Below are positions 1 through 61,921 of a stretch of 64,000 nucleotides of DNA, piece after piece. The notes under the pieces are model-generated. The model did no database searches, had not been told where the DNA came from, and was given only the letters and a program-made list of their open reading frames with translations. Origin of the DNA: an uncultured Flavobacteriales bacterium (lineage in GTDB: Bacteria > Bacteroidota > Bacteroidia > Flavobacteriales > BACL11); NCBI GenBank assembly GCA_943788405.1, contig CALSQD010000002.1:1325701-1389700 (forward strand). The letters run 5' to 3'. The position numbers and the translations under genes are program-made. Positions within the stretch are counted from its first letter, which is position 1. Every line of letters starts with the position of its first letter.

Positions 1-3000
1 TAAATTCATACATCCTATTCCACTCAAACATTTTACTATAAGTAGGTGCTATAGGATAAGTATTTCCATATGAAGATGTTAAACTTCTTAATTGGGTTTC
101 ATTATAATTTCTATCTACATCCGTTCGAAATGAGAATGACTTTGGCATAGTGTTAAAATTAATATCCTTTATTAATCGAAAGTAAGGCGATTTAGGGAAT
201 TTAACTTTGGCAAATGGTTTTATATTTTTTGGTTGCGTATTAAAATTATAAGTTAATGCTCCTCTGTAATTTACAGTACGATTTTCCTCAATATTTATAT
301 TTCGTATAGATGTTTCATTTTTTGAATAGGAAACTGAGAAATTTTCAATATCATATACTTTTGGTTTCTTAGCTACTTGCCCTTTCTTATTAGTCTTTGC
401 CTTTCTTACATTTGTGAAATTAATACTCTTACGCTTCACATAATCCTGAACTATATGTTTTAAAGAATCTTTTTTGGCAGCATTATCAAGTGCCTTTAAT
501 GAAGTAGTCAATAAAATATCTGGGTCAAGTGGGTTATATTGAGGATTCTTAACCGACTCAGAATTCCCTATATACATAGGCACTTTTACGCCATAATCTT
601 CTGGGAAGAATTTACCTAAATCAAAAGAAGATGAAAAATCATATTGGTAAGCATTGTATTTTTGGCGTTCATTTACTTTTTTCTCAATACTACCAAAACC
701 AACAGTACTCATATTACCTGAAAGAGTTACATTTCCAAAATCAGCTAATTTAGCCGTTAACCTACTGTTAGCAGCCCAACCTCCATACTCATCAAAGTCA
801 GTAAGCCTAAGTTCATTTACCCAAATTTGCCCACATTTAGACAAACCATCATCAGCTGAATTTACACTTACTTTTTTAGGGTTTCTTACACCAATCATTA
901 TTGTTTTTACTTGTGCCAGATTAGGGTTCCCAACAACAGTTACCCTACCTCCGCTCGTATGTTTAATATAGGGCAAACTAACCTCTGAACCATTAAAATT
1001 TCTTTCTTGTTTAGACAATTGGAAAATTTCAAAAGCAATATCAATCTCATTTTCAGTTGGCCAAATATCATCTGCTGAACTTGTAAAATGATTAGTTGGC
1101 GTTAAAGAAATTTCATACTCATAATAGTTAGCCGTGAAGTCGGTTCCTAAACGAATAAAGCATGATAAATCTCCTTTATTCAGATCATCTTCCTCTCCCT
1201 CAGTATGCACAAACATTTTTATACGCTTATAGGCTCTAACATCAATATCGGCAGTTTTATAAGCAGCACGAGAATCACCATCTTGTAAATCACATACTTT
1301 TAATACTAATGATTGTTCATTTTTTTGTCTAAGTGATGTAGTTGTATTATCTACTTCTTGCTCAATTCCAGGAGGCAATACATAATTGATTGGTGAACGA
1401 TTTCCATTTTCTTCAATATTTACAGCCGACACATCAAAAGTTGTTTCTCCTTCATCATCCAAAGGAATGTATTCCCCAGGCTCTGCTAATGAAAAGTTAT
1501 ACCTTCTCCATTCTCCTCTTACTAATTCCAATGTAGCAAAACGACAAATAATTGGCTGATGAAAATCAGTAAAGGCTATCCTCATAAAACGAATAGATTT
1601 AAAATCTCGAATACTTCCAATAACATTATCAGGCTGATAAACTGGAACTCTAAATTGGTACCATTTTATATTTCTTGTTTGCCCGTTTTCTGTTTTTACA
1701 GTAGTTTCTAGCACATCAGATATATGACTATCCCCAACATCCATTCCAGGAAATAACCTAACTTTATATTGAAAATAACTTTCTGTCTCACTTAGAGTAT
1801 GATCTCTATTTAGATCCTCAGTGTTTGGTTGAGAGGATGCAGCTGTAGGGTAAGTTTCAGGCGAATTATCGGTAGTAACCGAATTTCCATCTGTATTATT
1901 AAAATTCTTATATCTATCTAAAATTAATTCTGATCTACTATCAAAATCTGAGCCTCTGAAATAATGGAAATCATCTGCTGAAGGATCCTTTACTGCATTT
2001 TTGTATGCAGTAGAATTTGTACCATATGCTAAAGCTAAAGGTTGAATATAAACTAAATCAAAGAATAATTTTTCATCAGTATTTCTTAGTCCATCCATAC
2101 CGACATCCTGGAACTCTCTAGAGGTAGGATCATTATCAAAGGCCTCAACAATAGAAAAATTAGTAGGCACTCTACCCCAAGCTGTTGTATCAACATCTTC
2201 AACAGTGGCTGAAGTTGGCAATCCATTTTCAAAACTTTTATATCCATCTCGCAATACATCTTCCGATATATTTCCTAGGTGTAAATACATATCACCACCT
2301 GAATGATTAACTAAACCATCCTCATCATTAAAAGGATCCATCATCCAGAACTCTACAAACTCAATATTAGCAGCTTCAAAATCATTCGTCTCCAACTTAC
2401 GCATTATCCCTCCCCAATTTTCGGAAGGAGATATTAAAGTTCCATCAGCATTTAATCCGTTAACCGTATAATTATTTGGTCCTCTTTCCTGAGGGTAATA
2501 AGCTAAATCTAGCACTGCTAAATTTGTAATCTGACTCCCTAAGTCTGGATCTTTGTTTGGAAAAACCTCTGTTTCCAACACCTCTCGCGCATAATGATAA
2601 GATTGCTGGGCTATTGAACTTCCATTTGCTAAAGCAATAGTTTTATTTACATTTGGAGGAGTAATAGAAGTGCTTCTAAAAAATAGCGGATCAATAGTAT
2701 ACCATGCTAGTTTAGCTCTTTTATAACCCAACATCAAATCATTATTCAATGCTGAATTCATAAAAATATCTTCTTGTTTTTCTGGTATAGATGCCATACG
2801 CCAGGCTCCCATATTTTTAATATCTATTGATGTTCTGCTCGACTCAAAGTCATCAATATACGAAATACCTTCCTCTCCAACAGCACTATGATGACCAGGT
2901 ATAAGATGTGCAAATTCAGCAGTAGCTATTAAACGAGATTTTGCTTTTGTTTCAATTAAAGGCAACCAATCAACTGCACGAGTTAACCATGGCGCCTCTG

Positions 3001-5260
3001 TTTGATAATTCCCATCCAAACCCCAAATAGTATTAGAAATTGGCTCATCACCAGTATTAATTTTTTGTGTGTATGGGCGTTCAGTTAAATTCAACATAGT
3101 CGCTCCAATCAAGAAATCTTTATTAATTTCATAATCCGCATGTAAGCCAACTAATGTTTTATTCTGTATTCCAAACATAGAATTATTCTCTAAAGAGATT
3201 TTAATTGGCACTCCTGAATTTAAAATTCCTTCATTGATAATAGTAACACGCCCTAACATATAATCAACTGTATAATCCTGATTTTCAGTTAGCTTTTGTG
3301 AACCTGCCGTTACCGTAACTGACCCCTCAGGAACATTCATAGCATTCAGGCGAATTTCAGCACCTGATGATGATTGATAAGTTCCTTTCAATCTGAATCT
3401 ATTCAATTCAGGATATTGTTGCGCAACTGTAAGGGTAGAGTCATACAATGCTTGATACACATATTTTTTTGCAAGTGTTGGGTTGTTAATCTTATTGTAC
3501 AAATGAGAACCAAACGGTTCGCGTACAGGAAAAATGACTCTTCCATTTGAAGCTTTAGCAGTTACCCCTTCTATAAAATCAAATACTCCATCTGACTGAG
3601 TATCCATCTGCTGATTTAACCTATCTAAATTTAATACTTTTATTAATGGAATTCCTTCTAGATTTCCTTCACCAATATAATTAGTTAGTGCCCCTGATTC
3701 TTCAGTATTTTCGTAAACAACATCTAGTACAAAACCATCTTTACTCATTTGGTAGGCACCAAGAGCATAAACATTTTTCATCATCAAATCCCAGTTAGGA
3801 AGTAATGGCGTGAAATTTGTTCCTTTTAATAATTTTACAAATAATGCTTCTGGTGCATTTGGTCCTGTTGAACTAAGTTCTCCTACTTGAAAAGTTTTAC
3901 TCCCTCTAGTATATTGAAAAGCAACTGCTAAGACCTCATCATTATTAAGTGCTTGATTCAAAGAAATATATCCTAACTGATTATTGATAGTAAACTCTGA
4001 TTCAGAAAGCTTTCTTGCACGCTCTAATTTTTCATAATCTTGGGAGGCTGAGAAAAAAGCAGAATAAGGAGAAAATATATTATTTACCTGATTAATATCT
4101 CTAATTCCACTATGCTGATTAGTTAAATTATAGAAAAGGTTATTTGTGGCATTATCAGGTACTTCTTGAAAAGTAAGGGCTCCTGCAAAATTAGAGTTTG
4201 TATTATACACTTCTGTCTCTCCTAAATCTAAAAAAGAAACAATGTTTCTAGTATTTTCAGTAGTTCCCGTTTTATTAGTTACCCAAACCTCTACTTTTGT
4301 AATATTAATTGCTGAATTTACAAAAGGTAAGTTTGCTAAAGCTACATCATAATTATCCTTAAAATAATGTGCTAAAAAGAAATGCTTGTTTGCTTCATAT
4401 TGGTCAGCATATACATCAAATTCTGAAGTTTGCGCACCACCACTCACTTCAATTTCTGAAGTTGTACTTTTTTGTTGAGATAAAATACCTGTAATTGTTG
4501 TACGCCCAAATTGGAGTTGAGTTTTAAAACCAAATAACGATTGACTACCTGTTATCAAAGTTCCATTTAAAGGCAAACTAACATTACCAACCTCTAGCTT
4601 TTTTATGATTTCATCCTCATAACCCGTATATTCTAGCTTCATTTGATTCTCAAAATCAAAAGTACTTTCGGTATTAAAGCTTGTTGTTAATTTTAATTTA
4701 TCACCAATTTTACCAATTACATTCATTTGTATTTTCTCTTGAAAATCAAAAGATGTAGTCTTTCTTTGTTCTTCTGGTAAAGCAGGGTTATCTAACCTAT
4801 TAATTTTTAAACCAAAAATAAGTTCAGCAGAACCTTGAGGTCGAATATCAACAGCATTACCTCCAAAAATTCTATCAAAAGCTTGTCCAGGTATAAATAA
4901 TTTTGGCAAACCTAAAGCGGAAGTCTGATTACCCATTCTCTCTTTAGATCTATCACTCCAGTAATCAGTAATAGATTTATTCATCTTATATTTCTGGTAA
5001 TCTTTAAAACTAAGTGCCCTAGCATTACCTTCATCAAGATTACCAATCTTGTCCTGAATAAAATATTGATTAGTTTTTAAATCATACTGAACCTTATTGC
5101 TAAAATTAGGAGGATTATACATAAATACCCCTCCATTTTGATTTCCGGAAAAAGGATAAGCCAAAGTGGTATCGGTAGTAGATTGCCCCCACAAAGTAGC
5201 ATTTGCAAAAATAAATGCAAATACGAATACGAATAACTTATGGTTTTTATTGCTTTTCAA
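1..5260 (-). CDS. sprA: SprA, T9SS/gliding-motility outer-membrane translocon (partial; the C-terminal part lies beyond the window start)
   Basis: The minus-strand frame is stop-free from 5260 to the window edge (1753 codons). It is absent from the ORF track because no stop lies in the window. My hand translation of the 5' end gives (TTG)KSNKNHKLFVFVFAFIFANATLWGQ as a signal peptide. It continues ...RPQGSAELIFGLKINRLDNPALPEEQRKTTSFDFQEKIQMNVIGKIGDKLKLTTSFNTESTFDFENQMKLEY..., which I recognise as the conserved SprA N-terminal region. An in-frame TAG at 5264-5266 leaves TTG at 5260 as the only start ahead of the signal peptide. Confidence 0.85.
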   Translation of the reverse strand, partial: MKSNKNHKLFVFVFAFIFANATLWGQSTTDTTLAYPFSGNQNGGVFMYNPPNFSNKVQYDLKTNQYFIQDKIGNLDEGNARALSFKDYQKYKMNKSITDYWSDRSKERMGNQTSALGLPKLFIPGQAFDRIFGGNAVDIRPQGSAELIFGLKINRLDNPALPEEQRKTTSFDFQEKIQMNVIGKIGDKLKLTTSFNTESTFDFENQMKLEYTGYEDEIIKKLEVGNVSLPLNGTLITGSQSLFGFKTQLQFGRTTITGILSQQKSTTSEIEVSGGAQTSEFDVYADQYEANKHFFLAHYFKDNYDVALANLPFVNSAINITKVEVWVTNKTGTTENTRNIVSFLDLGETEVYNTNSNFAGALTFQEVPDNATNNLFYNLTNQHSGIRDINQVNNIFSPYSAFFSASQDYEKLERARKLSESEFTINNQLGYISLNQALNNDEVLAVAFQYTRGSKTFQVGELSSTGPNAPEALFVKLLKGTNFTPLLPNWDLMMKNVYALGAYQMSKDGFVLDVVYENTEESGALTNYIGEGNLEGIPLIKVLNLDRLNQQMDTQSDGVFDFIEGVTAKASNGRVIFPVREPFGSHLYNKINNPTLAKKYVYQALYDSTLTVAQQYPELNRFRLKGTYQSSSGAEIRLNAMNVPEGSVTVTAGSQKLTENQDYTVDYMLGRVTIINEGILNSGVPIKISLENNSMFGIQNKTLVGLHADYEINKDFLIGATMLNLTERPYTQKINTGDEPISNTIWGLDGNYQTEAPWLTRAVDWLPLIETKAKSRLIATAEFAHLIPGHHSAVGEEGISYIDDFESSRTSIDIKNMGAWRMASIPEKQEDIFMNSALNNDLMLGYKRAKLAWYTIDPLFFRSTSITPPNVNKTIALANGSSIAQQSYHYAREVLETEVFPNKDPDLGSQITNLAVLDLAYYPQERGPNNYTVNGLNADGTLISPSENWGGIMRKLETNDFEAANIEFVEFWMMDPFNDEDGLVNHSGGDMYLHLGNISEDVLRDGYKSFENGLPTSATVEDVDTTAWGRVPTNFSIVEAFDNDPTSREFQDVGMDGLRNTDEKLFFDLVYIQPLALAYGTNSTAYKNAVKDPSADDFHYFRGSDFDSRSELILDRYKNFNNTDGNSVTTDNSPETYPTAASSQPNTEDLNRDHTLSETESYFQYKVRLFPGMDVGDSHISDVLETTVKTENGQTRNIKWYQFRVPVYQPDNVIGSIRDFKSIRFMRIAFTDFHQPIICRFATLELVRGEWRRYNFSLAEPGEYIPLDDEGETTFDVSAVNIEENGNRSPINYVLPPGIEQEVDNTTTSLRQKNEQSLVLKVCDLQDGDSRAAYKTADIDVRAYKRIKMFVHTEGEEDDLNKGDLSCFIRLGTDFTANYYEYEISLTPTNHFTSSADDIWPTENEIDIAFEIFQLSKQERNFNGSEVSLPYIKHTSGGRVTVVGNPNLAQVKTIMIGVRNPKKVSVNSADDGLSKCGQIWVNELRLTDFDEYGGWAANSRLTAKLADFGNVTLSGNMSTVGFGSIEKKVNERQKYNAYQYDFSSSFDLGKFFPEDYGVKVPMYIGNSESVKNPQYNPLDPDILLTTSLKALDNAAKKDSLKHIVQDYVKRKSINFTNVRKAKTNKKGQVAKKPKVYDIENFSVSYSKNETSIRNINIEENRTVNYRGALTYNFNTQPKNIKPFAKVKFPKSPYFRLIKDINFNTMPKSFSFRTDVDRNYNETQLRSLTSSYGNTYPIAPTYSKMFEWNRMYEF

Positions 5261-5275
5261 TTCCTAATAAAGTAA

Positions 5276-5860
5276 TTACATTTGGCTCAATGCCGTTCTC
5301 ACTAAATCCTCAACACTTACAATTTCAGGGTTTGATTTCAATACTTTATCAATTTTACTCTCTGCTCCCTTTTTAGCAAATCCTAAAGCTAGTAGTGCAG
5401 ATAACGCTTCTTCTTTAATTGTATTGTCTATTGCATCAAACAATAAATCAGAGGTAGGCATCCCTTTTGCTACTTTATCTTTCAGGTCTATGATAATTCT
5501 TTGAGCAGTTTTTGCTCCTATTCCCTTTACGCTTTGTACGGCTTTTACATCAGCAGTAGTAATGTGGTGTATTATTTCCTGAGGAGAATAAGTGGACAAT
5601 ATAACTTGAGCTGTACTAGGGCCAACTCCTGAAACAGAAATTAAATTTCTAAACAAATGACGCTCACTTTCTTCATAAAAACCAAACAAAGTATGAGAAT
5701 CCTCTTTTACTGAAAGATGTGTAAATAACTTACACAACTCCCCATCAATTGCTGAAAAAGTTTGCAATGAAATTTTGATTTTATACCCAATTCCATTACA
5801 ATCTATCACCACATAAGTTGGCGTTTTTTCAACTAGTTTTCCTTGAATATGTGTTATCAT
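5276..5860 (-). CDS. ruvA: Holliday junction branch-migration complex subunit RuvA
   Basis: 194 aa. It has an N-terminal OB-fold pattern (MITHIQGKL...VVIDCNGIGYKIKIS) and HhH motifs (GVGPSTA, GIGAKTAQRI). The start ATG overlaps the maeB stop (ATGA on the minus strand, 5857-5860). Confidence 0.95.
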   Translation of the reverse strand: MITHIQGKLVEKTPTYVVIDCNGIGYKIKISLQTFSAIDGELCKLFTHLSVKEDSHTLFGFYEESERHLFRNLISVSGVGPSTAQVILSTYSPQEIIHHITTADVKAVQSVKGIGAKTAQRIIIDLKDKVAKGMPTSDLLFDAIDNTIKEEALSALLALGFAKKGAESKIDKVLKSNPEIVSVEDLVRTALSQM

Positions 5861-8127
5861 TTTTTAATTTGTGCGTCAACCACTGAAAGGGTTACCATAT
5901 TAATAATTTCACGAACTGTACAGCCTAACTGTAAAATATGAACTGACTTTTTCATTCCCACTAAAACAGGACCAATAGAATCTACCTCAGCAACTTCTTG
6001 AAGTAATTTATAAGCTAAATTCCCTGACTCCAAATTAGGGAAAATTAAAGTATTTGCACTTTCTTCTGCTAATGGTGAAAAAGGAAAAATTCGTTCTGTT
6101 TTTTCAGTATCCAAAGCAAAATCAGCTTGTATCTCCCCATCAACTACTAGGTTAGGGTGTTCTTTTCTAATGATATCAGCAGCTTTTGCCATTTTGGATG
6201 AAGCATTAGTTCTGGTAGATCCAAAATTAGAGAATGACAACAATGCCAATCTTGGTTTTATTCTGAATTGCTTAACTGTTTTTGCAATCATAGCACTCAT
6301 TTCAGCAATTTCTTCTGCAGTAGGGTTAAGGTTGATAGTTGTATCTGCCAAAAACAAAGTTCCTTTTTTTGTTCGCATAATATACATTCCAACAACTTTA
6401 TTTACACCTTCTTCTTTTCCAATTACCTCAAGTGCAGGTTTTATTGTACTTCTGTAATTTCTAGAAATCCCTGATATTAAGGCATCAGCCTCACCAGTTT
6501 CCACCATCATTGAACCAAAATAATTACGCTCACGCATTAATTTTCTTGCTTCAAATTGTGTTAAGCCTTTTCGTTTTCTCTTCTCCCAAAATAAATCACC
6601 AAATTCATGACGCTTTTTTTCTTGAGCAACTTCTTTAGGGTCAATTATACATATATCTTCAAACTCTATAGAAAACTCCTCAATTAATGCTTCAATTTTT
6701 TTTCTTCTACCTAATAAGATTGGCACTGCAATTCCATCATCTTTTACTTGTTGTGCTGCCTTTAATATTTTATAATGTTCTGCTTCAGCAAAAACTACTT
6801 TTTTAGAATTTCTCTTAGCTCGAGCTGTTAAGGTTCTTACTAATTTATTATCCAAGCCTAATCTTTTCTTTAAACTCTCACGATATTTATTCCAATCTGG
6901 AATTTCTTCTTGTGCTACACCCGAACGAACTGCTGCCATTGCAACTGCAGGCGCTACAGCAGTAATCAACCTTGGGTCCAATGGTTTTGGAATAATATAC
7001 TCTGGTCCGAATGCCAATGTATTGTCATCATAAGCCAAGTTAATTTCATCCAAAACTGTTTCTTTGGCTAAATTAGCAATTGCTTTTACAGCAGCCAATT
7101 TCATACTTTCATTAATTTCAGTTGCTCTCACATCCATTGCTCCTCTAAAAATATAAGGGAATCCAAGTACATTATTTACTTGATTAGGATGGTCAGATCT
7201 TCCAGTAGCCATGATAATATCATCACGAGAATTCATAGCTTCTTTATATGCAATTTCAGGGTCAGGATTGGCTAAAGCAAAAACAATTGGGCGTTTTGCC
7301 ATAGATTTAATCATCTCTACTGACACAATATTTCCTTTTGACAACCCTAAAAATACATCTGAATTTTTAATAGCCTCTTCCAAAGTATCTACTCGCCTAT
7401 TGGTAGCGAAAAGCAATTTTTTACCTTGCAATCCTACTCTATTTTGCTTGATAACTCCTTTGCTATCAAGCATTACTAAATTCTCTTTCTTAACTCCTAA
7501 TGCTAAATATAATTTTGAACATGACATAGCGGCTGCTCCTGCTCCATTTACTACAATTTTAACTTTAGTAATATCTTTTTTAGCAATCTCTAATGCATTT
7601 AACAATGCTGCTGAAGATATAATAGCTGTTCCATGCTGATCATCATGCATTACAGGAATGTCTAATTCTTCTTTTAATCTTCTTTCAATCTCAAAACATT
7701 CTGGTGCTTTTATATCTTCCAGATTAATTCCACCGAAAGTAGGAGAAATTGCCTTTACAGTCTCTACAAATTTATCCACCTCAGTAGCATCAACCTCAAT
7801 ATCAAAAACATCAATGTCAGCAAAAATTTTAAAAAGCAATCCTTTTCCTTCCATTACAGGTTTTGATGCTTCAGGACCAATATTACCCAGTCCTAATACA
7901 GCTGTACCATTAGAAATAACAGCAACTAAGTTCCCTTTTGCTGTATATTTATATACATCATTTTTTTTCTTTTCTATCTGTATACAAGGCTCTGCCACTC
8001 CTGGAGAGTAGGCTAAAGACAATTCTCTTTGAGAAGAATGTTGCTTTGTTGGTACAACTTCAATTTTACCCGGCCTTCCCTCAGCATGATATGCTAATGC
8101 TTCCTTCTTACTTACTTTCTTTGCCAT
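5857..8127 (-). CDS. maeB: NADP-dependent malic enzyme (malic enzyme domain fused to a phosphotransacetylase-like domain)
   Basis: 756 aa. It has an N-terminal malic enzyme core ([21 protein letters not shown] Rossmann motif) and a roughly 330-aa PTA-like C-terminal domain, which is the typical MaeB architecture. Confidence 0.95.
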
Positions 8128-8191
8128 AAATTTATTCTATCTATAAGTAGGCAAATTTAATGATTTGATTCTATCTAGCACCATAAAAAAG

Positions 8192-8219
8192 AAAACCCTG
8201 CACATAAGTGCAGGGTTTT
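8192..8219 (-). terminator. Rho-independent terminator downstream of the 8241-8957 gene
   Basis: Perfect hairpin AAAACCCTGCAC-ATAA-GTGCAGGGTTTT. On the minus strand it is followed by a T6 run (A85-A90 on the plus strand). Confidence 0.7.
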
Positions 8220-8240
8220 AAAAATTATATATAGTATTTA

Positions 8241-8957
8241 CTACTTTACAATCAGTTTTTTAATTGAAACAACTTCATCATTTACAAGTAGATTTCCAAA
8301 GTAAATTCCTTTAGTCATATCTGTTAAGTCTAGCTTTTGAATTCCTTCCTCTGAAAGTTCAATGCTCTTCACTTCATTTCCTAAAATATCAATTAACTTA
8401 AGAGTAGCTAAACTTCCTTTAAAGTTGAAATAAACCATTTCACTAGCAGGGTTAGGGTAAAAATCTCCAACTTCATTGAATGCTGCAGTCTCATTAATTG
8501 AAGTAGTTTCACTACAATCATAAGTTATAGTAACACAAGTCTCATCAGTAGGATTATTTTCATCATAAAAACAATACTTAACAGTTGCAATTCCAGCAAC
8601 TCCTCCAGCATTAAAATATCCTGAATGCGCATCTAAATCACTATTGTCATATGAAATAGCCTGCCCAGCATCAATAGTTGCAGCAGAACTAGGATTAGTT
8701 GCGCTTGTAGGATAACAAGTCCCAGCAAAACAATAAGATGATCCTGCCCATGCAGGCATACCTAAGGGTAAAGTAATATTTGTTTTTTGACAAATAACAC
8801 TAATAGAATCTCCTGAAACATTTTTCACATCTAAATGATGTTCAATTTGAATATTAGGATCACCAGTAAACATTGTATCTCCAGTAATCACTATACTTTG
8901 TGCAGCAGCAAATCCAATTTGAGCAATTACTAGTATAAAAAGTAGATTTTTTTTCAT
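8241..8957 (-). CDS. Secreted protein with a T9SS type-A C-terminal sorting domain, function unknown
   Basis: 238 aa. It has a signal peptide (MKKNLLFILVIAQIGFAAAQ), a Cys-rich middle part and a C-terminal FYPNPASEMVYFNF...KGIYFGNLLV...KLIVK sorting-domain pattern. Confidence 0.8.
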   Translation of the reverse strand: MKKNLLFILVIAQIGFAAAQSIVITGDTMFTGDPNIQIEHHLDVKNVSGDSISVICQKTNITLPLGMPAWAGSSYCFAGTCYPTSATNPSSAATIDAGQAISYDNSDLDAHSGYFNAGGVAGIATVKYCFYDENNPTDETCVTITYDCSETTSINETAAFNEVGDFYPNPASEMVYFNFKGSLATLKLIDILGNEVKSIELSEEGIQKLDLTDMTKGIYFGNLLVNDEVVSIKKLIVK

Positions 8958-8971
8958 GCTTTAATTTTTTG

Positions 8972-8979
8972 CAAATGTA
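8972..8979 (-). promoter_or_regulatory. Candidate -7 promoter box (TACATTTG on the minus strand) for the 8241-8957 gene
   Basis: Plus-strand CAAATGTA is the reverse complement of TACATTTG, which matches the Bacteroidota TAnnTTTG motif. It lies 14 nt upstream of the ATG. Confidence 0.4.
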
Positions 8980-9059
8980 TAGTATTTATCTTAAAACTCA
9001 TTTGTTTTTGAACACATAAGACAATTAAAATAAATTCTTTATAACTCTTATATTTTTAG

Positions 9060-55594: not shown

Positions 55595-55625
55595 AAAAAT
55601 CCCTGCCATATTGGTGGGGATTTTT
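55595..55625. terminator. Bidirectional terminator between korB and the convergent gene remnant
   Basis: AAAAATCCCT-loop-GGGGATTTTT, with U-runs available on both strands. Confidence 0.55.
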
Positions 55626-56418
55626 ATTTTACCTTATAACCATAAGACTTTCGCATAAACTTATAATTATCTAAGTGATAATGTATGCCCTCTACCCTTT
55701 GATCAATCCAAACATCAAAAATAATAAGCTCTGGTGTACGCGATTGCCACTTGTACCACCCTTTTTGCTCCCTAAGTTTTTGCAATGATTTTGCATGTAG
55801 CTTTTTAGTAAGCTCCAAATCATAATTAGTAGTTAAGGATAGCAGAGTAAGTAATATAGCTTTTTGCCGTGCATTCAAGCCTTGTTTGTTATAATAGAAA
55901 TTACGCAAATGCTCTATCTCTTCAAGGGCTAAAGCTGAATCATCAGCATCAATAGCTGTAAGTACTTTTAGCAAACGAATATTAAAATGCCAACCCTCTC
56001 TATCTTTTTTAAGAGAGATAGTTTCTGCTAAATGATGATTTACTGTTGTATAATCCTCCTGAATATAGGCACATACAGCTGAATAATAATGCCACTTAGC
56101 TTGTTGCAATGGTGTTTGTACAGTAAAGCGGTGCTTTATTAACTCTTTGCATAGCATAATTGCCTCTGGCAATCTATCTGCAAAAAATAAAGCTAAGAAC
56201 TTTGTAATATTTAACTGATAGTAATTATAGGTATTTATACCTAAAAATGGTGATGCTATTTCTATATACTTAAATGAATCTTTTGGGTTAGCACTAAATA
56301 CAGCATTGTATGCTAATGTATTATAAATATTTCCTTCTCTACTAGCTTTATATACTAAAGGGGTAGCTTTTATAAGCTCTAATATACATAGTATGGTTTT
56401 TATTGAGCTTAAATACTT
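55624..56418 (-). pseudogene. 5'-truncated or start-less remnant of a helical-repeat (TPR-like) protein gene
   Basis: The frame is stop-free for 265 codons (56418 to 55624). There is no ATG, GTG or TTG in the first 82 codons (KYLSSIKTILCILELIKATPLVYKASREGNIYNTLAYNAVF...). The first usable start is TTG 56172, which the ORF track uses. The frame is closed upstream by TAA TAA. Confidence 0.55.
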
Positions 56419-56537
56419 TTATTACAATTGATTATATTCGGTTATAAACTTTATTTACTTTATAAGTAAATAGTTTCTTAAAAAGAACTTAAAAAATAAA
56501 ATAATATATTTGCCTCGCAATTATTTGATGTAAAAGG

Positions 56538-56559
56538 CTGTTAAAAAAAGTGTTAACAG
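56538..56559 (-). terminator. Weak candidate terminator about 100 nt downstream of the TonB-dependent receptor gene
   Basis: CTGTTAA-N8-TTAACAG forms a 7-bp stem. On the minus strand it is followed by CCTTTT. Confidence 0.3.
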
Positions 56560-56654
56560 AATTAAAAATAGAGGGGGAGATTCGAATCTTTCTACCCACT
56601 CATTTGCGTGGATTTCTTTTGCTAATTTATGAAGAACTAAATTATCATTTGATA

Positions 56655-59060
56655 TTAAAACTCAATTAACAACCCAATGCTAGGAAGGACTGTGCCAGAG
56701 TTATTAATGATCTCATATAGGGGGTAGCTTTCTGAATTTTCTCCCGTACCCTCAACTAAAGGCCCTAAATTTGGATCTATTCCATATTCAGATGGTAATT
56801 GTCTTTTTGCATTTAAAATATTTTCAATATCGATATAAGCATTTAAACTCCAAGATTTAAAGAACCATTTCTTATCAATTCTAATATCAAGTCCATGCTG
56901 GCCTTTCAGGCGTTGGGTGTTTAATAAATTATAATCTAGTACACCTCTTTGATTAATATCCCAAATACTTTTATTACTTGAATTAATTAAATCAGTAGGT
57001 GTGTAGGGTGATCCACCAGAATAACGATACTTAATCCCTAGCTCAATGTTATTCTTAAACTTTTTACCAGCTGTCATATTTAGTATAAATCTATTATCCC
57101 ATTTAGATGAAATCAATTTTCCTTCATTATCTTCAAATCTACTGTAATAATATGTTGCTGATAGTATTCCGTAAATACTTGAACTCATTTTTTGTTGTGC
57201 TAAAAGTTCTATTCCGTAACTATTACCTTTTGATATAGATGATACGTCCTCATTACCAACTACACCAAAATCATCTCCTAAATTTGCCAATGATATAGAA
57301 TCAAGTATTGAGAAGGGGTAATTACTATACCTCTTATAAAATGACTCTAATGAGATTTTGCTATAGCTAGAAGGATTATATTCAATTCCTATCACTGCAT
57401 GGTCACAAGTAATATATGCAACATCTTTGTTAAGGTATTTGCCATTATTCTCAAATCCTAATATAGTATAGGATGGTAATTGATGAAACCTACCAATATT
57501 ACTATTAATACTTGTTTTACTATTAAGGTTGTAAGCTAATGATAGTCTTGGAGAAAAATTATTTGAATTTGCATTGTCAGTAAATGAATTTCCGTCTATT
57601 CGTAAGCCAAATGAAGAAGTTAGTTTATTTTCAATGTATGTTTTGCTTATTTGTGTAAAAGCTCCATATTTTATAAAATGTAAATTAACATTATTAATTC
57701 CCGTAATAATACTATCTCCAATAGTAAATATCTGATTCGTATTGTTTGTATATGTTGCATCTTCTAAATTAGATCCAATTATAATTGAATAACCATTTCT
57801 TTTAAAATTATACTCTAAGCGTGTTTTATTCTCGATCTCTTCTGATTTGTAATCTAGAATTTTTTGTGAATTTTCATCTGCATAATCTAAATACTTTAAA
57901 GCAGTATTATCAAGATGGTTTCTACTCATTACAAAAAAGAGGTTTGAGTTATCAAAAAAATGTCTCCAAGTACCTCCAATTGTGTAATTCCATTGCTTAT
58001 TTATAACTAAATTATTTAGATTATAATTATTTAATGCAATTTGCATCGTATCTTCTTCATCATTGTTAATATCTTTATTAAGAGTGAAATCATCAATTGT
58101 AGCTATTCCAAGAAAGTTAAATTGATTCTTTCTATCTGGTTTAAAAGTATATTTAAACTGCATATCGTTATAGGTTGGTAAAAAAGGTAATTTTAATGCT
58201 TTGAATAAAAATTGTAAGTATGATCTTCTTACCGATAACAATAGAGTAGACTTTTTAGATAGCGGTGTGTTTAGCGTTAGTCCAGCATCGCTAGATCCTA
58301 GAGCAAACGAACCACTTATTTTTTCTTCATTTCCTTCAATCAGCTTTAATTCCATTACAGAGCTAAGTGCATTTCCTCGGTTTGCAGGAAAAGCTCCAGT
58401 GTAAAAATCAACTTCTCTAATAAAATTAACATTTAAAATACCTACTGGACCTCCGGATGACCCTTGAGTAGTAAAATGATTGATAGTTGGTATTTCAACC
58501 CCATCTAAGAAAAATTTATTTTCAGATGGCGAGCCTCCCCTAACAATAATATCGTTTCTAAAACCTGATGATGTAGCCACTCCAGGCAAATTTGCTACTA
58601 CTCTAGAGATATCTCTATTTCCACCAGCACTTTTAGAAATTTCTGAAGCATTAATCGTTCGCAAACTTACAGGGCTAGCTTGTGTTTTATTAAAAGTATT
58701 TCCCCTAACTTTTACTTCCCCCAAAAGCTCTGAATTTTCACTTAGAAAAAAATCAAGTCTGAGACTTTTGTTAGAGCTTACCTTTATTTCTGATTGAATA
58801 TCTGTATTAAATCCAATATAACTACATTTAAAGTTATAAGCACCAGCATTTAAACTCAAAATCTCATAGTTTCCATTAATATCAGATGTAGCGCCAATTG
58901 TTGTCCCTTCAATAATAATGTTTGCAAAAGGTATCGGCTCGTTATTTAAGGTATTACTAATTGAACCGTATACTTTTACACTTTGAGAAGATACAACATT
59001 TGAAAATGCGATAAAGCTAATAAATAGAATCGTATTTTTTATAGAAACTTTTTTATTCAT
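56655..59060 (-). CDS. TonB-dependent outer-membrane receptor with an N-terminal carboxypeptidase-regulatory-like domain
   Basis: 801 aa with a signal peptide. It has a CarboxypepD_reg-like segment (VYGSISN...PIPFANIIIEGTTIGATSDINGNYEI) and a plug region (…DISRVVANLPGVA...IIVRGGSPSENKFFLDGVEI). A long barrel ends ...SIGLLIEF. Confidence 0.85.
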   Translation of the reverse strand: MNKKVSIKNTILFISFIAFSNVVSSQSVKVYGSISNTLNNEPIPFANIIIEGTTIGATSDINGNYEILSLNAGAYNFKCSYIGFNTDIQSEIKVSSNKSLRLDFFLSENSELLGEVKVRGNTFNKTQASPVSLRTINASEISKSAGGNRDISRVVANLPGVATSSGFRNDIIVRGGSPSENKFFLDGVEIPTINHFTTQGSSGGPVGILNVNFIREVDFYTGAFPANRGNALSSVMELKLIEGNEEKISGSFALGSSDAGLTLNTPLSKKSTLLLSVRRSYLQFLFKALKLPFLPTYNDMQFKYTFKPDRKNQFNFLGIATIDDFTLNKDINNDEEDTMQIALNNYNLNNLVINKQWNYTIGGTWRHFFDNSNLFFVMSRNHLDNTALKYLDYADENSQKILDYKSEEIENKTRLEYNFKRNGYSIIIGSNLEDATYTNNTNQIFTIGDSIITGINNVNLHFIKYGAFTQISKTYIENKLTSSFGLRIDGNSFTDNANSNNFSPRLSLAYNLNSKTSINSNIGRFHQLPSYTILGFENNGKYLNKDVAYITCDHAVIGIEYNPSSYSKISLESFYKRYSNYPFSILDSISLANLGDDFGVVGNEDVSSISKGNSYGIELLAQQKMSSSIYGILSATYYYSRFEDNEGKLISSKWDNRFILNMTAGKKFKNNIELGIKYRYSGGSPYTPTDLINSSNKSIWDINQRGVLDYNLLNTQRLKGQHGLDIRIDKKWFFKSWSLNAYIDIENILNAKRQLPSEYGIDPNLGPLVEGTGENSESYPLYEIINNSGTVLPSIGLLIEF

Positions 59061-59069
59061 TCTGTAATT

Positions 59070-60089
59070 TTATGATGTGTGAATTAAGCTTGACCAAAAT
59101 TCGTGAGGTACATGATTACTAAATTTACTGTTAGGAGCAAGAATTACTGATACAGCATCATGTGAATGTAAAGATTCTTGGTGAGAGCAAATTACTCGAA
59201 AATCTTTGACACGTGTATCATTTACTAACTGTTCATATAATAATCTAGCAGCATCTTCAACAAACTTGAGATAAGATCCGTTGAGTTCAGCAAACGCCAT
59301 CTCATCTTCTCTTTTTACTATTACTTGAGTTTCAGTTTTTAAGGCATTTATACACATTTCTTGTAAATCTTCAATCCATACTGTATTTTCAAATTTAATA
59401 GATATTCTTGCTACTGAGCGCTGTGAGTGTGATACAGTTATTTTGTTTCTATATTTTTTAGCATGTTCTGCAAGTTCATAAGAACAAGGACAAGCTGAAG
59501 AGTAAACAAAATCAAAATGTAAAAACTTTATTATATCTCCTTTATTATCGATATTACTTTCTAAAGTGCAGTTATAATATTGATATCCTGAGTTCTTAGA
59601 TCTTAAGGATGATTGTAATATAGGGTAAGAAAAGTGTAATCCAATTCTTGCATCAAACGTCTCTAGATCATCTTTATAGTTAAGTAATATTTTATCTAAC
59701 TTATTATAAACTTTTTCATCTTTATATTTGTAGAAAGATCTCATAATACGAGACATATTAATACCTTTCTTATGAGCAGCTAAAGATACAGTGCCTGTTA
59801 CTTGAGTTTCAAGTTCTATATCCCCTCCTTCTCGTTTATCATACTTAAGAGGTAATCTGAAATTATGAATACCTACTTGTTGTATAGCTACAGGAGCCCC
59901 TTGTATTAAAGAAGAAGGACCATTCTGTAAGTCTGGAAAAGTCTTAATATCATCTTTAGTGGGTTTATAATCAGTATCATAATCTCTATTAGGCTCATAG
60001 TACCTTTCGGAATGTTTGTTGTTAGGAGCTTCTATTGTAGACTCAGCATCTCCAATCCATTCATATTTTTTGTCATTTTTTTTATTCAT
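59070..60089 (-). CDS. folE2: GTP cyclohydrolase I type 2 (FolE2/MptA family, GCYH-IB) with an N-terminal extension of about 50 aa
   Basis: 339 aa. Several blocks align by eye with the FolE2 sequences I know: IQQVGIHNFRLPL, KGINMSRI, SSACPCS...SHSQRS, VKREDEMAFAE...KFVEDAARL and ESLHSHDAV. Confidence 0.85.
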   Translation of the reverse strand: MNKKNDKKYEWIGDAESTIEAPNNKHSERYYEPNRDYDTDYKPTKDDIKTFPDLQNGPSSLIQGAPVAIQQVGIHNFRLPLKYDKREGGDIELETQVTGTVSLAAHKKGINMSRIMRSFYKYKDEKVYNKLDKILLNYKDDLETFDARIGLHFSYPILQSSLRSKNSGYQYYNCTLESNIDNKGDIIKFLHFDFVYSSACPCSYELAEHAKKYRNKITVSHSQRSVARISIKFENTVWIEDLQEMCINALKTETQVIVKREDEMAFAELNGSYLKFVEDAARLLYEQLVNDTRVKDFRVICSHQESLHSHDAVSVILAPNSKFSNHVPHEFWSSLIHTS

Positions 60090-60099
60090 ATTGATCCCA

Positions 60100-60555
60100 T
60101 TATTTTGTTAGAGGCTCATATATTGCTGAATTATTTGTACCGCCTTCATAACATTCAACATTTAAAACTTTAACTCTTCCTTTTGTCTCAATAAATATCA
60201 TTTTGTTTATGTAATTGTAAACATAAGTGGCAAATTTCTCACATCCAACTCCATTTAATACTCTTAGTTGTATTAAATTTTGTTCTGAAAGTTTTTTAAA
60301 TATTGATAATTGAGGATCATCTTCTGCAACTATTGTTGTATGGTCAAACATGTAGCTCATGTGTTCCTTTATTCCATTTCTTTTAAATGAGCCAAAATCA
60401 CAAACCCAGTTTAATTCGCTTAGGCTTCCTGTAAAGGTGACTTTAAACTTCATTGCGTATCCATGAATATATTGACAGTGAGAATGTTTAGCTTTCCATT
60501 GTCTAAATGCTGTGCTATATCCATCAAAAATTTTGGTACTGTTGAATTCGTTCAT
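60100..60555 (-). CDS. QueD/PTPS-fold (T-fold) protein with a non-canonical metal site
   Basis: 151 aa. The region ...YSTAFRQWKAKHSHCQYIHGYAMKF... aligns with the QueD block ...FEAAHRLP...CGRLHGHSF.... The Cys and the middle His are kept. The first His position is Phe, and HGH reads HGY. Confidence 0.7.
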   Translation of the reverse strand: MNEFNSTKIFDGYSTAFRQWKAKHSHCQYIHGYAMKFKVTFTGSLSELNWVCDFGSFKRNGIKEHMSYMFDHTTIVAEDDPQLSIFKKLSEQNLIQLRVLNGVGCEKFATYVYNYINKMIFIETKGRVKVLNVECYEGGTNNSAIYEPLTK

Positions 60556-60556
60556 T

Positions 60557-60652
60557 TTTTTTTTACAAAAATACTTTTTTTTTATTAATGTATAATTATT
60601 TTTATAAAAAGTTATACATATTTAAATTATATATGTATTTTTGTAAAAAAAA
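60557..60652. promoter_or_regulatory. Mirror-symmetric divergent promoter/operator region
   Basis: Perfect 18-bp inverted arms lie at 60557-60574 and 60635-60652, and each carries TATTTTTG. The concentric inner elements are the palindrome TTTTTATAAAAA (60599-60610) and ATGTATAA-N16-TTATACAT (60588-60619). Confidence 0.6.
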
Positions 60653-60825
60653 TGATGAATAAATTTCTAAGTACCTATTATCCAATATTACTTGCTTTTG
60701 CTTGTATGTTGTATTCTATTGGGTTACATATAATAGGAGACCCAGAAGGAGCGCAGTACACAGCACATTGGCCTGGTACAATTTTACTATTTGCTATAGC
60801 AATAAGACAAAGAAGAAAATCATGA
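60652..60825 (+). CDS. 57-aa two-TM membrane peptide (not in the ORF track)
   Basis: Hand translation gives MMNKFLSTYYPILLAFACMLYSIGLHIIGDPEGAQYTAHWPGTILLFAIAIRQRRKS. It has two hydrophobic helices and a basic tail. The TGA stop overlaps the next ATG (ATGA at 60822-60825). Confidence 0.5.
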   Translation: MMNKFLSTYYPILLAFACMLYSIGLHIIGDPEGAQYTAHWPGTILLFAIAIRQRRKS

Positions 60826-60977
60826 ATTTGAGTATGCTTATAGTAGGATTTGTAATTTTTTCTCTTTATATTATTGGACTTATATATATGATTAATGTAA
60901 GTCATAAAGAACAAGAGCAAGATTTATTAAATGATCCAGAGATTCCTAAAAATTTTAAAGACAAATTAACTAAATAG
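60822..60977 (+). CDS. 51-aa single-TM membrane peptide
   Basis: The sequence is MNLSMLIVGFVIFSLYIIGLIYMINVSHKEQEQDLLNDPEIPKNFKDKLTK. This is the hydrophobic, internally consistent part of the 91-aa ORF-track entry 60702-60977. It is translationally coupled to the preceding ORF. Confidence 0.5.
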   Translation: MNLSMLIVGFVIFSLYIIGLIYMINVSHKEQEQDLLNDPEIPKNFKDKLTK

Positions 60978-61027
60978 TTGTGTTTAATTTAAATGATATC
61001 TTATTATTTAAGATAAATAACTGAATT

Positions 61028-61921
61028 ATGAATTTAGGTTACGCTTGCATTAATATGACTTTGGGAGAACATAAACCCAAAATTACTACTAATCGTAGTA
61101 TGATTAAAAAAACTTTTAAAGAAAAAGGTATTACATACGCATCTGAATTGGCTATTCAAAACTGCAGAGATCTAGTTGAGATAATTAAATGGAATAATAA
61201 GAATGGAATTAACTTCTTTAGGTTAACCTCTGATTTGTTTCCTTGGGCATCTGAGTATAATCTCACAGAGTTACCAAATTACAATCTCATTGAAAATATA
61301 TTAGGTCTTGCCGGAGCACTTTCGAATAAGTGTGGGCAACGTATCACAGCACATCCTGGTCCGTTTAACGTGTTAGTATCTCCTAAGGAACACGTAGTAG
61401 AAAATACTATTGCTGATTTAACTTTACATGGTGAAGTCTTTGATATTTTAGGATTGAGTAGAACTCCTTATAACAAAATCAATATACATTGTAATGGTGT
61501 TTATGGTGATAAGATAGCTGCAATGGATAGGTTCTGTAAGAACTTTGAGAGGCTGCCTGAATCAGTTCAAACTCGTTTAACTGTAGAGAATGATGATAAA
61601 GCAAGTATGTACTCTGTAAAAGATTTAATGTACATTCATGAACGTATTGGTATTCCTATTGTATTTGATTACCACCACCATAAATTTTGTACAGGAGATT
61701 TATCAGAAGAAGAAGCGCTAAAACTTGCAGTGTCTACTTGGGGTGATATAAAGCCTGTAGTTCATTATTCAGAATCTAAAGCATTGCATGAGCGGAATGA
61801 TAAGTTAAAACCTCAGGCTCATTCAGATTATATTAAAGAGATTCCTAATACTTATGCATTAGACTTAGATGTTATGGTAGAGGCAAAAGCTAAAGAACTG
61901 TCTATCATTCCATTTTTATAA
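61028..61921 (+). CDS. uvdE: UV damage endonuclease UvdE
   Basis: 297 aa. All the UvdE TIM-barrel blocks I know are present: LGYACIN, FRLTSDLFPW, AHPGPFNVL, INIHCNG, LTVENDD, IVFDYHHH, VVHYSES, AHSDYI and DVMVEAKAKE. Confidence 0.9.
   Translation: MNLGYACINMTLGEHKPKITTNRSMIKKTFKEKGITYASELAIQNCRDLVEIIKWNNKNGINFFRLTSDLFPWASEYNLTELPNYNLIENILGLAGALSNKCGQRITAHPGPFNVLVSPKEHVVENTIADLTLHGEVFDILGLSRTPYNKINIHCNGVYGDKIAAMDRFCKNFERLPESVQTRLTVENDDKASMYSVKDLMYIHERIGIPIVFDYHHHKFCTGDLSEEEALKLAVSTWGDIKPVVHYSESKALHERNDKLKPQAHSDYIKEIPNTYALDLDVMVEAKAKELSIIPFL

Follow-up and report, generated by a model that had tools for sequence, protein, structure and literature searches.

A queD-folE2 gene pair of marine Flavobacteriales and a TonB-dependent receptor gene that most likely joined it by a recent accident of genome compaction

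Introduction

Why should the gene for a TonB-dependent receptor lie only nine nucleotides behind the gene for a pterin-pathway enzyme? The question is raised by a stretch of 64,000 nucleotides (hereafter the window) from an uncultured Flavobacteriales bacterium (GenBank assembly GCA_943788405.1, contig CALSQD010000002.1, positions 1,325,701 to 1,389,700), in which a queD-like gene, folE2 (encoding GTP cyclohydrolase IB) and a receptor gene follow one another on the minus strand. A preliminary description of this DNA proposed that the three genes are co-transcribed as a metal-starvation operon of the Zur type, with a palindrome at 60588-60619 as a possible operator, and that FolE2 carries an unusual N-terminal extension. 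Our analysis points elsewhere. The reading that we hold to be probable, if not by a wide measure, is that of a two-gene unit for entry into the preQ0/queuosine pathway, an orphan receptor gene recently joined to it via a deletion, and a FolE2 extension that is maintained by selection.

Results

The conserved unit consists of two genes

We scanned 185,579 species genomes with an alignment of FolE2, which yielded 53 loci, and then compared the proteins of the window with these loci by tblastn. L-numbers denote loci from other genomes; L001 comes from the same species as the window, and L054 from a sister lineage. Among the 53 loci, the receptor gene was found 3′ of folE2 only in L001. L054 has the gene order of the window, with FolE2 96% and the receptor 95% identical. 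The receptor-folE2 linkage is confined to the window's species and this one sister lineage, and it was absent from L002, L003, L004, L055, L062-L064 and 80 viral loci. The pair of queD-like gene and folE2, on the other hand, recurs with changing neighbours: with other downstream genes in L002 (whose FolE2 is 96% identical to that of the window), L004 and L048, with a convergent CNNM gene in L055 and L056, with a convergent gene for an E1 dehydrogenase in L062 and L063, and with a convergent gene of 199 aa in L064-L066. Because the downstream gene varies while the queD-like gene and folE2 recur, the conserved unit consists of these two genes and not of three.

Several other arrangements were observed along the way. 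In a Saprospirales metagenome-assembled genome (MAG; L012, 6452-6865 and 6875-7930), a FolE2 of the same clade is preceded by a PTPS protein with the Cx5HGH signature (PTPS-II, the biopterin type). There fabD lies 3′ of folE2, as it does in L007 (8712-9602) after an intervening ORF of 231 aa. In an Ulvibacter MAG (L053:7001-7177), an MsrA-like ORF (GCFWC) continues, without a change of frame, into residues 24-82 of the FolE2 N-terminus and no further, which may be either a gene remnant or a fusion. In L006, L007, L044 and L051, another receptor gene, paired with a DUF4249 gene, stands divergent to folE2; its product is 25% identical to the window receptor, and the folE2 genes of this clade have a TATATTTG box of their own and do not share the palindrome. 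We judged this second adjacency, which involves a different receptor family, to be a coincidence in receptor-rich genomes.

A probable history of the folE2-receptor junction

Neither intergenic gap of the trio (10 nt and 9 nt) holds a hairpin, as the preliminary description had noted, and both are too small for one. The sister lineage L054 keeps 95 nt between folE2 and the receptor gene, against 9 nt in the window, and the alignment of the junction traces this difference to a single block of 86 nt, which L054 has and which the window, L001 and L072 lack. The first half of the block is homologous to the 3′ flank of folE2 in L002 and L003, neither of which has the receptor there, and the last ~20 nt ahead of the receptor ATG resemble the leader of a free-standing receptor orthologue (L067). 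The 3′ flank of folE2 forms a hairpin of -11.6 kcal/mol (z = -2.6), followed by UUUUU, in L003 and one of -6.1 kcal/mol (z = -1.9) in L054; among loci the sequence of these stems varies, and their complementarity is kept.

Orthologues of the receptor with 83-90% identity occupy three unrelated neighbourhoods, each with its own ~200 nt of DNA upstream: beside carotenoid genes, 3′ of an HmuY operon, and between genes for a secreted peptidase and an OYE reductase. A box that fits TAnnTTTG, the -7 promoter consensus of Bacteroidota, precedes the ATG of every one of them by 33-44 nt. In L067 (8425-14406) the orthologue adjoins a carotenoid cluster (crtB, crtI, lycopene cyclase) and a gene for a 293-aa regulator of the MerR family, and in L069 it sits between the HmuY operon and a photolyase gene; these contexts show that the receptor gene often changes neighbours.

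The simplest history suggested by these comparisons has two steps. The receptor gene would have landed behind the folE2 terminator in the ancestor of the window's species and its sister lineage, and a deletion of 86 nt in the lineage of the window would later have removed the terminator-like hairpin of folE2 together with the remnant of the receptor leader, leaving the 9-nt gap. Today, transcripts that start in the promoter region of queD-folE2, near 60566-60620, would run on into the receptor gene. Since the deletion appears to have removed both the terminator-like hairpin and what remained of the receptor promoter, read-through would be the likeliest source of receptor mRNA. The claim of co-transcription thus fares well: with the 9-nt gap and the loss of 86 nt relative to L054, it is likely in this strain. 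The coupling itself is most likely a recent accident of genome compaction, as judged from the junction sequences, and not a conserved regulon.

Downstream of the receptor, the hairpin that had been placed about 100 nt past its stop codon is present at 96 nt. It is weak (CUGUUAA-N8-UUAACAG, then CCUUUUAC, with two G-C pairs only), and as its region folds no better than shuffled sequences (z = -0.69), it can be called terminator-like only. A terminator scan of 56000-61200 found none.

The receptor itself matches the Pfam families CarbopepD_reg_2 and Plug (Plug E = 7.3e-10), and its partial match to SusC/RagA is N-terminal only. It is 25% identical over its full length to the receptor of L007, for which a match to the PF00593 barrel was found, and PF00593 is also present in one close homologue, P0323; from both we infer a barrel, presumably of 22 strands. 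Against solved chains, ZnuD included, the receptor found no sequence match at E <= 0.01, and its 801 residues include only 7 His, at most 2 in any 20-aa window, with no His-rich loop. By these sequence features, it is not ZnuD-like.

A FolE2 subfamily with an N-terminal extension

The product of folE2 matches the Pfam family GCHY-1 (PF02649) over residues 52-313 (E = 3.6e-68) and the NCBIfam FolE2 equivalog NF010200 with 267.7 bits (cut-off 215). Its motifs CPCS, HSQRS (H-x-QRS), KREDE (KR-DE) and ESLHSH (ES-H-H) align with the solved structures 2R5R, 3D2O and 8G6C and are invariant in 48 homologues. The enzymes of Neisseria gonorrhoeae (NGO0387/3D2O) and Nitrosomonas (NE1163/2R5R) and that of 8G6C have the same bimodular T-fold with these active-site motifs kept (phmmer E 1e-18 to 1e-11), whereas the window protein adds three elements: the N-terminal extension, a 9-residue insertion (KKYRNKITV, residues 209-217) between CPCS and HSQRS, and a C-terminal tail. 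The tail (residues 318-339; 59070-59135, minus strand) reads H-x2-WSSLIH-x-S with H329, W332 and SSLIH337 invariant, and extends ~20 residues past the end of the solved structures. Counted from the first aligned position, the window protein is longer at its N-terminus by 43 (2R5R), 51 (3D2O) and ~12 (8G6C) residues; 8G6C, with 303 aa, itself has ~48 residues ahead of the core.

The extension spans M1-F51, ahead of PDLQ. It holds 12 acidic residues and 5 Tyr, and no internal Met occurs in FolE2 before M112; in these respects the preliminary description, which had spoken of about 50 acidic, Tyr-rich residues, was accurate. Nine extension residues (Y9, W11, D14, N24, S27, Y30, R35, D38 and P43) are invariant in the 48 homologues (73-96% identity), and dN/dS against six relatives is 0.05-0.15 for the extension and 0.04-0.08 for the core. 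The extension is translated and under purifying selection.

What did not hold is the view that it is unusual. The proximal ~17 residues, R-x-Y-D-x2-[YF]-x-[PV]-T-x2-[DY]-I-x2-[FL], were found in every group read, and the distal part differs from group to group. Marine Flavobacteriales and phages share KYEW[IV]GD...N-x-HS (48-55 aa for the extension in total), Chitinophagales and Saprospirales have a different distal sequence (62-68 aa in total), and Chloroflexota have an Asn/Gly/His-rich distal part, mostly of 46-110 aa and reaching 196 aa if translation begins at the first in-frame Met. In one orthologous group, which is Crocinitomicaceae-like, the distal part is absent, the extension there amounting to 17 aa. 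A scan of IMG/VR found 196 viral contigs that encode this FolE2 clade; the best 80 were kept, 79 of them were read for the extension, and in all 79 it is 47-92 aa long and includes a motif of the [YF][ED]W type. The extension is a trait of a FolE2 subfamily shared by marine Bacteroidota and phages, not an oddity of the window gene. One may guess that it serves as an oligomer-interface or partner-docking arm.

Neither structure prediction nor sequence search placed the extension further. An AlphaFold2 (AF2) model of FolE2 gave a mean predicted local distance difference test score (pLDDT) of 59, and below 50 for residues 1-75, from which no conclusion was drawn. The extension alone, searched against 1.84 billion representatives, gave 25 matches. 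Six were read: two N-terminal pieces with the extension, one leading into a FolE2 core and one into an unrelated C-terminus, and four large repeat proteins; most other matches are shorter than 135 aa. Two of the large proteins, P0367 and P0383, are surface proteins whose tandem Cys-rich repeats (H-T-F-E-W-V-T-D-K-E-P-T-C-x3-G-S-K-H-E-E-C) resemble extension residues 5-28, which are without cysteines; we take this likeness to be probably chance amplified by repetition. In Chloroflexota (L025, L029, L031, L032 and L034), the N-terminal tails are rich in Asn-Gly-His repeats (for example NGHNGHNGHNGHNG) and look metal-binding.

A variant QueD

The queD-like protein matches the Pfam family PTPS (PF01242, E = 1e-14). 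Its score against PHROG 2389, 'QueD-like', is 123 bits (E = 1.5e-35), and that against bacterial QueD (TIGR03367) is 31.5 bits, below the cut-off of 89.25. It is 46-51% identical to the QueD proteins of Flavobacterium phage immuto_2-6A and of Cellulophaga phages phiST and phiSM. An AF2 model (pLDDT 91.4) finds its best folds in 3JYG, E. coli QueD (4NTK) and A. baumannii QueD2 (7V0F); the Foldseek match to E. coli QueD has E ~5e-8, a probability of 1.0 and a TM-score of 0.72-0.77, normalised to the length of the target.

Members of this superfamily are told apart by their signatures: Cx3HGH in QueD, Cx4HGH in QueD2, Cx5HGH in PTPS-II and ExxHGH in PTPS-III (PMC5041015; PMC9894224). The window protein has C27 and H31 with Cx3 spacing, and at the position of the second His an invariant Tyr33, which gives Cx3HGY; in the full motif, C-Q-Y-I-H-G-Y, Gln28 stands at the Glu position of the PTPS-III signature. 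A profile alignment places the invariant F17 and Y33 opposite two zinc ligands of the E. coli enzyme, H16 and H33, leaving H31 as the only ligand retained. Three histidines are conserved: H31 and H72 without exception, and H26 in all 16 sequences of one alignment and in at least 90% of 37. With E. coli QueD, the window protein has in common the T-fold of the PTPS family, a Cys four residues before H-G, an Asp-His pair (D71, H72) and C-terminal glutamates; it differs in having F17/Y33 for H16/H33 and in being encoded beside folE2 only, not queC or queE. Among solved structures, that of QueD2 (7V0F) gives the best match to its sequence (E = 5.8e-6), and QueD2 shares the theme of relaxed zinc dependence, although QueD2 proteins have Cx4HGH with the HGH pair kept and 190-300 aa (PMC9894224), compared with Cx3HGY and 151 aa here. 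The FRQW/HGY signature is shared with the phage QueD proteins of PHROG 2389, in which HCx3HGY and FRQW were observed family-wide (L073:8998-9459, L074:3962-4456, L057:2806-3264, L059:5757-6230).

Since the QueD2 residue equivalent to H72 binds zinc (PMC9894224), a rewired metal site in the window protein is possible by analogy. If the missing ligands reflect zinc sparing at all, it would be a constitutive trait shared with phages, and not that of a Zur-controlled paralogue.

Pathway role and phage relatives

FolE2 would convert GTP to 7,8-dihydroneopterin triphosphate (H2NTP), and a QueD of the phage type would turn H2NTP into 6-carboxy-tetrahydropterin, the entry to 7-deazaguanines of the preQ0/queuosine type. 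FolE2 probably feeds folate synthesis as well. We read the pair as an entry to the preQ0/queuosine pathway because the closest relatives of its QueD come from phages with proven 7-deazaguanine DNA; by this analogy, it would have a queuosine role in the bacterium. The DNA of the phages immuto, phiST and phiSM has been shown chemically to hold preQ1-derived or 7-deazaguanine bases, and the first two of them are listed with a single QueD each (PMC10516641).

The viral relatives of the window's FolE2 support the association of the two enzymes in other settings. Among the best 80 of the 196 viral contigs, 51 encode a PTPS protein, 47 encode QueC, QueE or QueF, and none encodes the receptor. The phage-like contig L057 (104 kb; L075 in IMG/VR), whose FolE2 is 89% identical to that of the window, has its FolE2 cluster at 2800-9020; the contig encodes DnaB, PTPS, a formyltransferase, QueF, QueC, a radical-SAM protein, a phosphoribosyltransferase, FolE2, dCTP deaminase, PolB and GroES/EL. 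L059-L061 (FolE2 75% identical) encode RNR, QueC, PTPS, a radical-SAM protein, FolE2, a MazG-like protein and PolB, and their exact FolE2 protein is on record on 165 contigs. Homologues of uvdE, the UV damage endonuclease gene that lies near the pair in the window, also occur in FolE2-bearing phages. Phage 7-deazaguanine clusters (FolE, QueD, QueE, QueC, QueF, DpdA, DpdN; PMC10516641) use the window's type of QueD. Phage homologues with about 50% identity to the queD-like protein are encoded next to QueC, QueE-like, QueF and either FolE or FolE2 genes. The cultured phages immuto and phiST have the canonical FolE, whereas the uncultured marine phages L057 and L059 combine the window's FolE2 subfamily with that QueD and with QueC, QueE-like and QueF genes. 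Compared with these phage clusters, the window is a bacterial chromosome with the first two genes only.

The palindrome and the divergent genes

Upstream of the queD-like gene, the palindrome at 60588-60619 is self-complementary at 13 of 16 positions and unique in the window, in which no further copy scored above chance. It lies within one long imperfect inverted repeat (60556-60655, arms of 48-50 nt) that at each end has TATTTTTG, then a run of A, then an ATG, that of queD on one side and that of an ORF of 57 aa on the other. The promoter function of TATTTTTG at 60566-60573 is a prediction from its match to the -7 consensus.

The palindrome is conserved in L001, L002, L054 and L004, with a variable centre: its conserved half-sites of 7-8 bp lie ~22 bp apart, centre to centre, with 14-16 variable bp between them. 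The L004 version is TGCATAAC-N14-GTTATGCA, a change on both arms and hence compensatory. In L062 and L063 it stands directly 5′ of the small ORF, with queD 298 nt away, and it is missing at the queD-folE2 loci L048, L055 and L064, which are without small ORFs. The palindrome is thus probably a real, if putative, operator, and its distribution suggests that it probably belongs at least as much to the unit of small ORFs and uvdE as to queD-folE2. As an operator of Zur it would be atypical in its spacing, and this distribution speaks against such a role. In L063 (1330-1400), and likewise in L062, it lies within a longer inverted repeat that is perfect over 16 bp (AATAAAATGTACTTTG...CAAAGTACATTTTATT).

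The two small ORFs were observed between queD and uvdE in several lineages and are called as genes in L054, L072, L062 and L063; neither has a Pfam or PHROG family match. The uvdE product matches Pfam UvdE (E = 3.4e-65) and scores above the cut-off of TIGR00629.

Other identities for these elements were tried and set aside. An SOS box, considered in view of the neighbouring uvdE, does not fit, as the architecture is unlike two Bacteroidota SOS motifs. BirA-type operators read TGTWAAC-N14-GTTWACA; the half-site here differs, and there is no biotin gene. Rfam gave no riboswitch or leader RNA 5′ of queD, neither at gathering thresholds in the window nor credibly at E <= 5 in 60480-60720. A sigma-70 promoter scan was uninformative for Bacteroidota, its matches not being enriched, and a literature search gave no support in flavobacteria for light regulation of folE2, PTPS and uvdE.

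Genomic setting

Gene order, coordinates and identities agree with the preliminary description and with our profile searches (Table 1). Elsewhere the window encodes BamA, OmpH, 2-oxoglutarate:ferredoxin oxidoreductase (KorAB), Nfu, RuvA and alternative complex III. Records of the identical receptor protein include contigs as long as 1.95 Mb, and those close receptor homologues whose source is named all carry a Flavobacteriales label. The window is neither phage DNA nor a mobile island: it belongs to the chromosome of a marine Flavobacteriales bacterium that is uncultured and has a small genome. Past the receptor gene, beyond an AT-rich spacer of 482 nt (56173-56654), lies an ORF of 182 aa without a family match (55624-56172, minus strand). 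The spacer holds a T-arm-like string, GATTCGAATC; as a tRNA remnant or att site it was rejected, ARAGORN and Rfam having found nothing.

Table 1. Coordinates of the features of the locus (positions in the window)
Feature	Position	Strand	Remarks
queD-like (PTPS) gene	60100-60555	minus	151 aa; signature FRQW...HCx3HGY
folE2, GTP cyclohydrolase IB	59070-60089	minus	339 aa
TonB-dependent receptor gene	56655-59060	minus	801 aa; CarboxypepD_reg-like domain, plug and barrel; without SusD partner
FolE2 N-terminal extension, residues 1-51	59937-60089	minus	distal KYEW[IV]GD...N.HS, proximal R.YD..Y.PT..DI..F
folE2-receptor junction, 9 nt	59061-59069	minus	site of 86 nt missing relative to sister lineage L054
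queD-like/folE2 gap, 10 nt	60090-60099
32-bp imperfect palindrome, ATGTATAA-N16-TTATACAT	60588-60619		centre of ~100-bp symmetric divergent promoter region
TATTTTTG, match to Bacteroidota -7 element TAnnTTTG	60566-60573	minus	ends 10 nt before queD-like ATG
TATTTTTG, mirror-image box	60636-60643	plus	precedes divergent small ORFs
Small membrane-protein ORFs, 57 aa and 51 aa	60652-60825, 60822-60977	plus	overlapping (ATGA), divergent from queD
uvdE (UV damage endonuclease)	61028-61921	plus	3′ of small ORFs
GAATTTTG, candidate internal promoter	59095-59102	minus	7/8 match to -7 box; folE2 3′ end
TAAATTTG, exact -7-box-like motif	59390-59397	minus	within folE2
Weak terminator-like hairpin	56538-56559	minus	96 nt beyond receptor stop

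Discussion

The locus is made of known kinds of element, a queD-folE2 operon and an orphan TonB-dependent receptor. Several points weigh against the way in which we have joined them. Read-through into the receptor gene is deduced from sequence, the terminator-like hairpins of L002 and L054 are weak, and the two promoter-like motifs inside folE2 (TAAATTTG and GAATTTTG) could be receptor promoters. The queuosine role, and that of FolE2 as the sole GTP cyclohydrolase I, rest on analogy. The chemistry of the QueD-like protein, which is without two canonical zinc ligands, is not certain, and the FolE2 of the Saprospirales locus L012 pairs with a protein of the PTPS-II type, so that the partner, and hence the pathway, varies.

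Two alternatives concern the receptor. It may be transcribed mainly from a promoter of its own within the 3′ part of folE2, its tight spacing then having no regulatory meaning, which we regard as possible yet doubtful. GAATTTTG lies 35-42 nt 5′ of the receptor ATG, the same distance as that of the TAnnTTTG boxes of the orthologues, and TAAATTTG is an exact motif on the same strand. Such motifs, however, are about as frequent as chance predicts for so AT-rich a window (121 TAnnTTTG matches against 110 +/- 10), and the 9-nt gap holds nothing that would stop a transcript from upstream. GAATTTTG, moreover, encodes the conserved residues E-F-W, and because the identical sequence is present in L002, where no receptor follows, it did not evolve as a receptor promoter. 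Far less probable, in our view, is the Zur-type operon of the preliminary description, in which FolE2 and the QueD paralogue would be zinc-independent back-ups, the receptor would import zinc and the palindrome would be the operator. Its appeal lies in the likeness to Zur regulons of other phyla, which include FolE2, QueD2 and often TonB-dependent receptors (PMC6103462; PMC9894224) and likewise have the same kinds of gene side by side, some with ZnuD-type receptors, and a palindrome upstream. The AT-rich palindrome overlaps with the place expected for a -33 region, and its conservation includes one compensatory change; the QueD-like protein is without two of the three canonical zinc histidines; and an unrelated receptor (25% identical) stands divergent to folE2 in four other loci. 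The resemblance ends there. The receptor linkage is restricted to the species and its sister lineage and appears to be the product of a deletion, and the receptor has neither His-rich loops nor a match to ZnuD or any other solved chain. We examined every gene called within 10 kb of the receptor, and ten more ORFs of 165-197 aa elsewhere in the window; none is of the Fur family, and none is a ZnuABC, COG0523 or ribosomal-paralogue gene. The Zur boxes described in the literature are palindromes of the form 7-1-7 or 9-1-9 or of 23 bp (PMC6103462), to which half-sites ~22 bp apart are unlike, although these boxes come from other organisms and may not be those of the host. The palindrome instead tracks the small ORFs and uvdE, being absent from queD-folE2 loci that are without small ORFs. 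The window protein has the Cx3 spacing of QueD rather than the Cx4HGH of QueD2, and the queD-folE2 pair was present wherever the clade was seen, phages included, which is the pattern of housekeeping enzymes. As FolE2 replaces FolE in about one third of sequenced bacteria (PMC5699537), its presence alone is no sign of a zinc back-up.

The other two alternatives concern the role of the pair, which we read as an entry to the preQ0/queuosine pathway. It could be a domesticated remnant of a phage 7-deazaguanine cluster that stands outside the tRNA-queuosine pathway of the host and has another role or none. The scores of the QueD-like protein (123 bits against PHROG 2389 and 31.5 against TIGR03367, cut-off 89), the abundance of the FolE2 clade in viral contigs, with up to 89% identity to phage copies, and the uvdE homologues of those phages all lean that way. 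Nevertheless, we consider it unlikely: synteny of the pair with the unit of small ORFs and uvdE extends over lineages in which the QueD-like proteins share only 64-68% identity, which fits vertical inheritance, FolE2 is under strong purifying selection, and near the pair there is no other phage gene, no dpdA, queC or queE and no PADLOC match, on which ground membership in a Dpd defence system was rejected as well. Quite improbable, too, is that the pair makes a pterin, as a FolB bypass for folate or as biopterin, instead of a 7-deazaguanine precursor. The COG0720 family is functionally promiscuous (PMC5041015), the same FolE2 clade stands behind a Cx5HGH protein in the Saprospirales locus, and L062 and L063 have a gene for pterin-4a-carbinolamine dehydratase 4 kb away. 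Against this, the motif C-Q-Y-I-H-G-Y has the spacing of QueD, not Cx5, and Gln in place of the PTPS-III Glu, and the closest relatives of the protein are the sole PTPS proteins of phages that make preQ0-derived DNA bases.

A zinc-starvation regulon linking the receptor to pterin enzymes in Bacteroidota would be a useful regulatory discovery if true, but it finds no support in the evidence. It is a long shot, too, that marine Flavobacteriales and their phages run the entry to 7-deazaguanines and pterins in a constitutively zinc-sparing manner, with FolE2 in place of the zinc-dependent FolE and a QueD whose metal site is rewired or absent. The conserved N- and C-terminal tails of FolE2, which hold invariant or near-invariant His, Tyr and acidic residues and in Chloroflexota are rich in His, Asn and Gly, would then serve in metal acquisition or in docking between enzymes, and the receptor fusion would be a first step towards coupling the pathway to uptake of a metal or a precursor. 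Read as we prefer, with a conserved pair and a newly adjoining receptor gene, the locus offers a clear case of operon extension through the deletion of a terminator and promoter spacer in a streamlined marine genome, for which the sister lineage that keeps the spacer is a natural control. The variant features of the enzymes, namely a QueD without the canonical zinc triad and the tails of FolE2, are of biochemical interest. This FolE2 subfamily and the QueD that lacks the triad are common to abundant marine Flavobacteriales and to phages, at up to 89% identity, and such sharing between host and phage bears on how phages acquire genes for DNA modification and on the zinc dependence of enzymes in the zinc-poor surface ocean.

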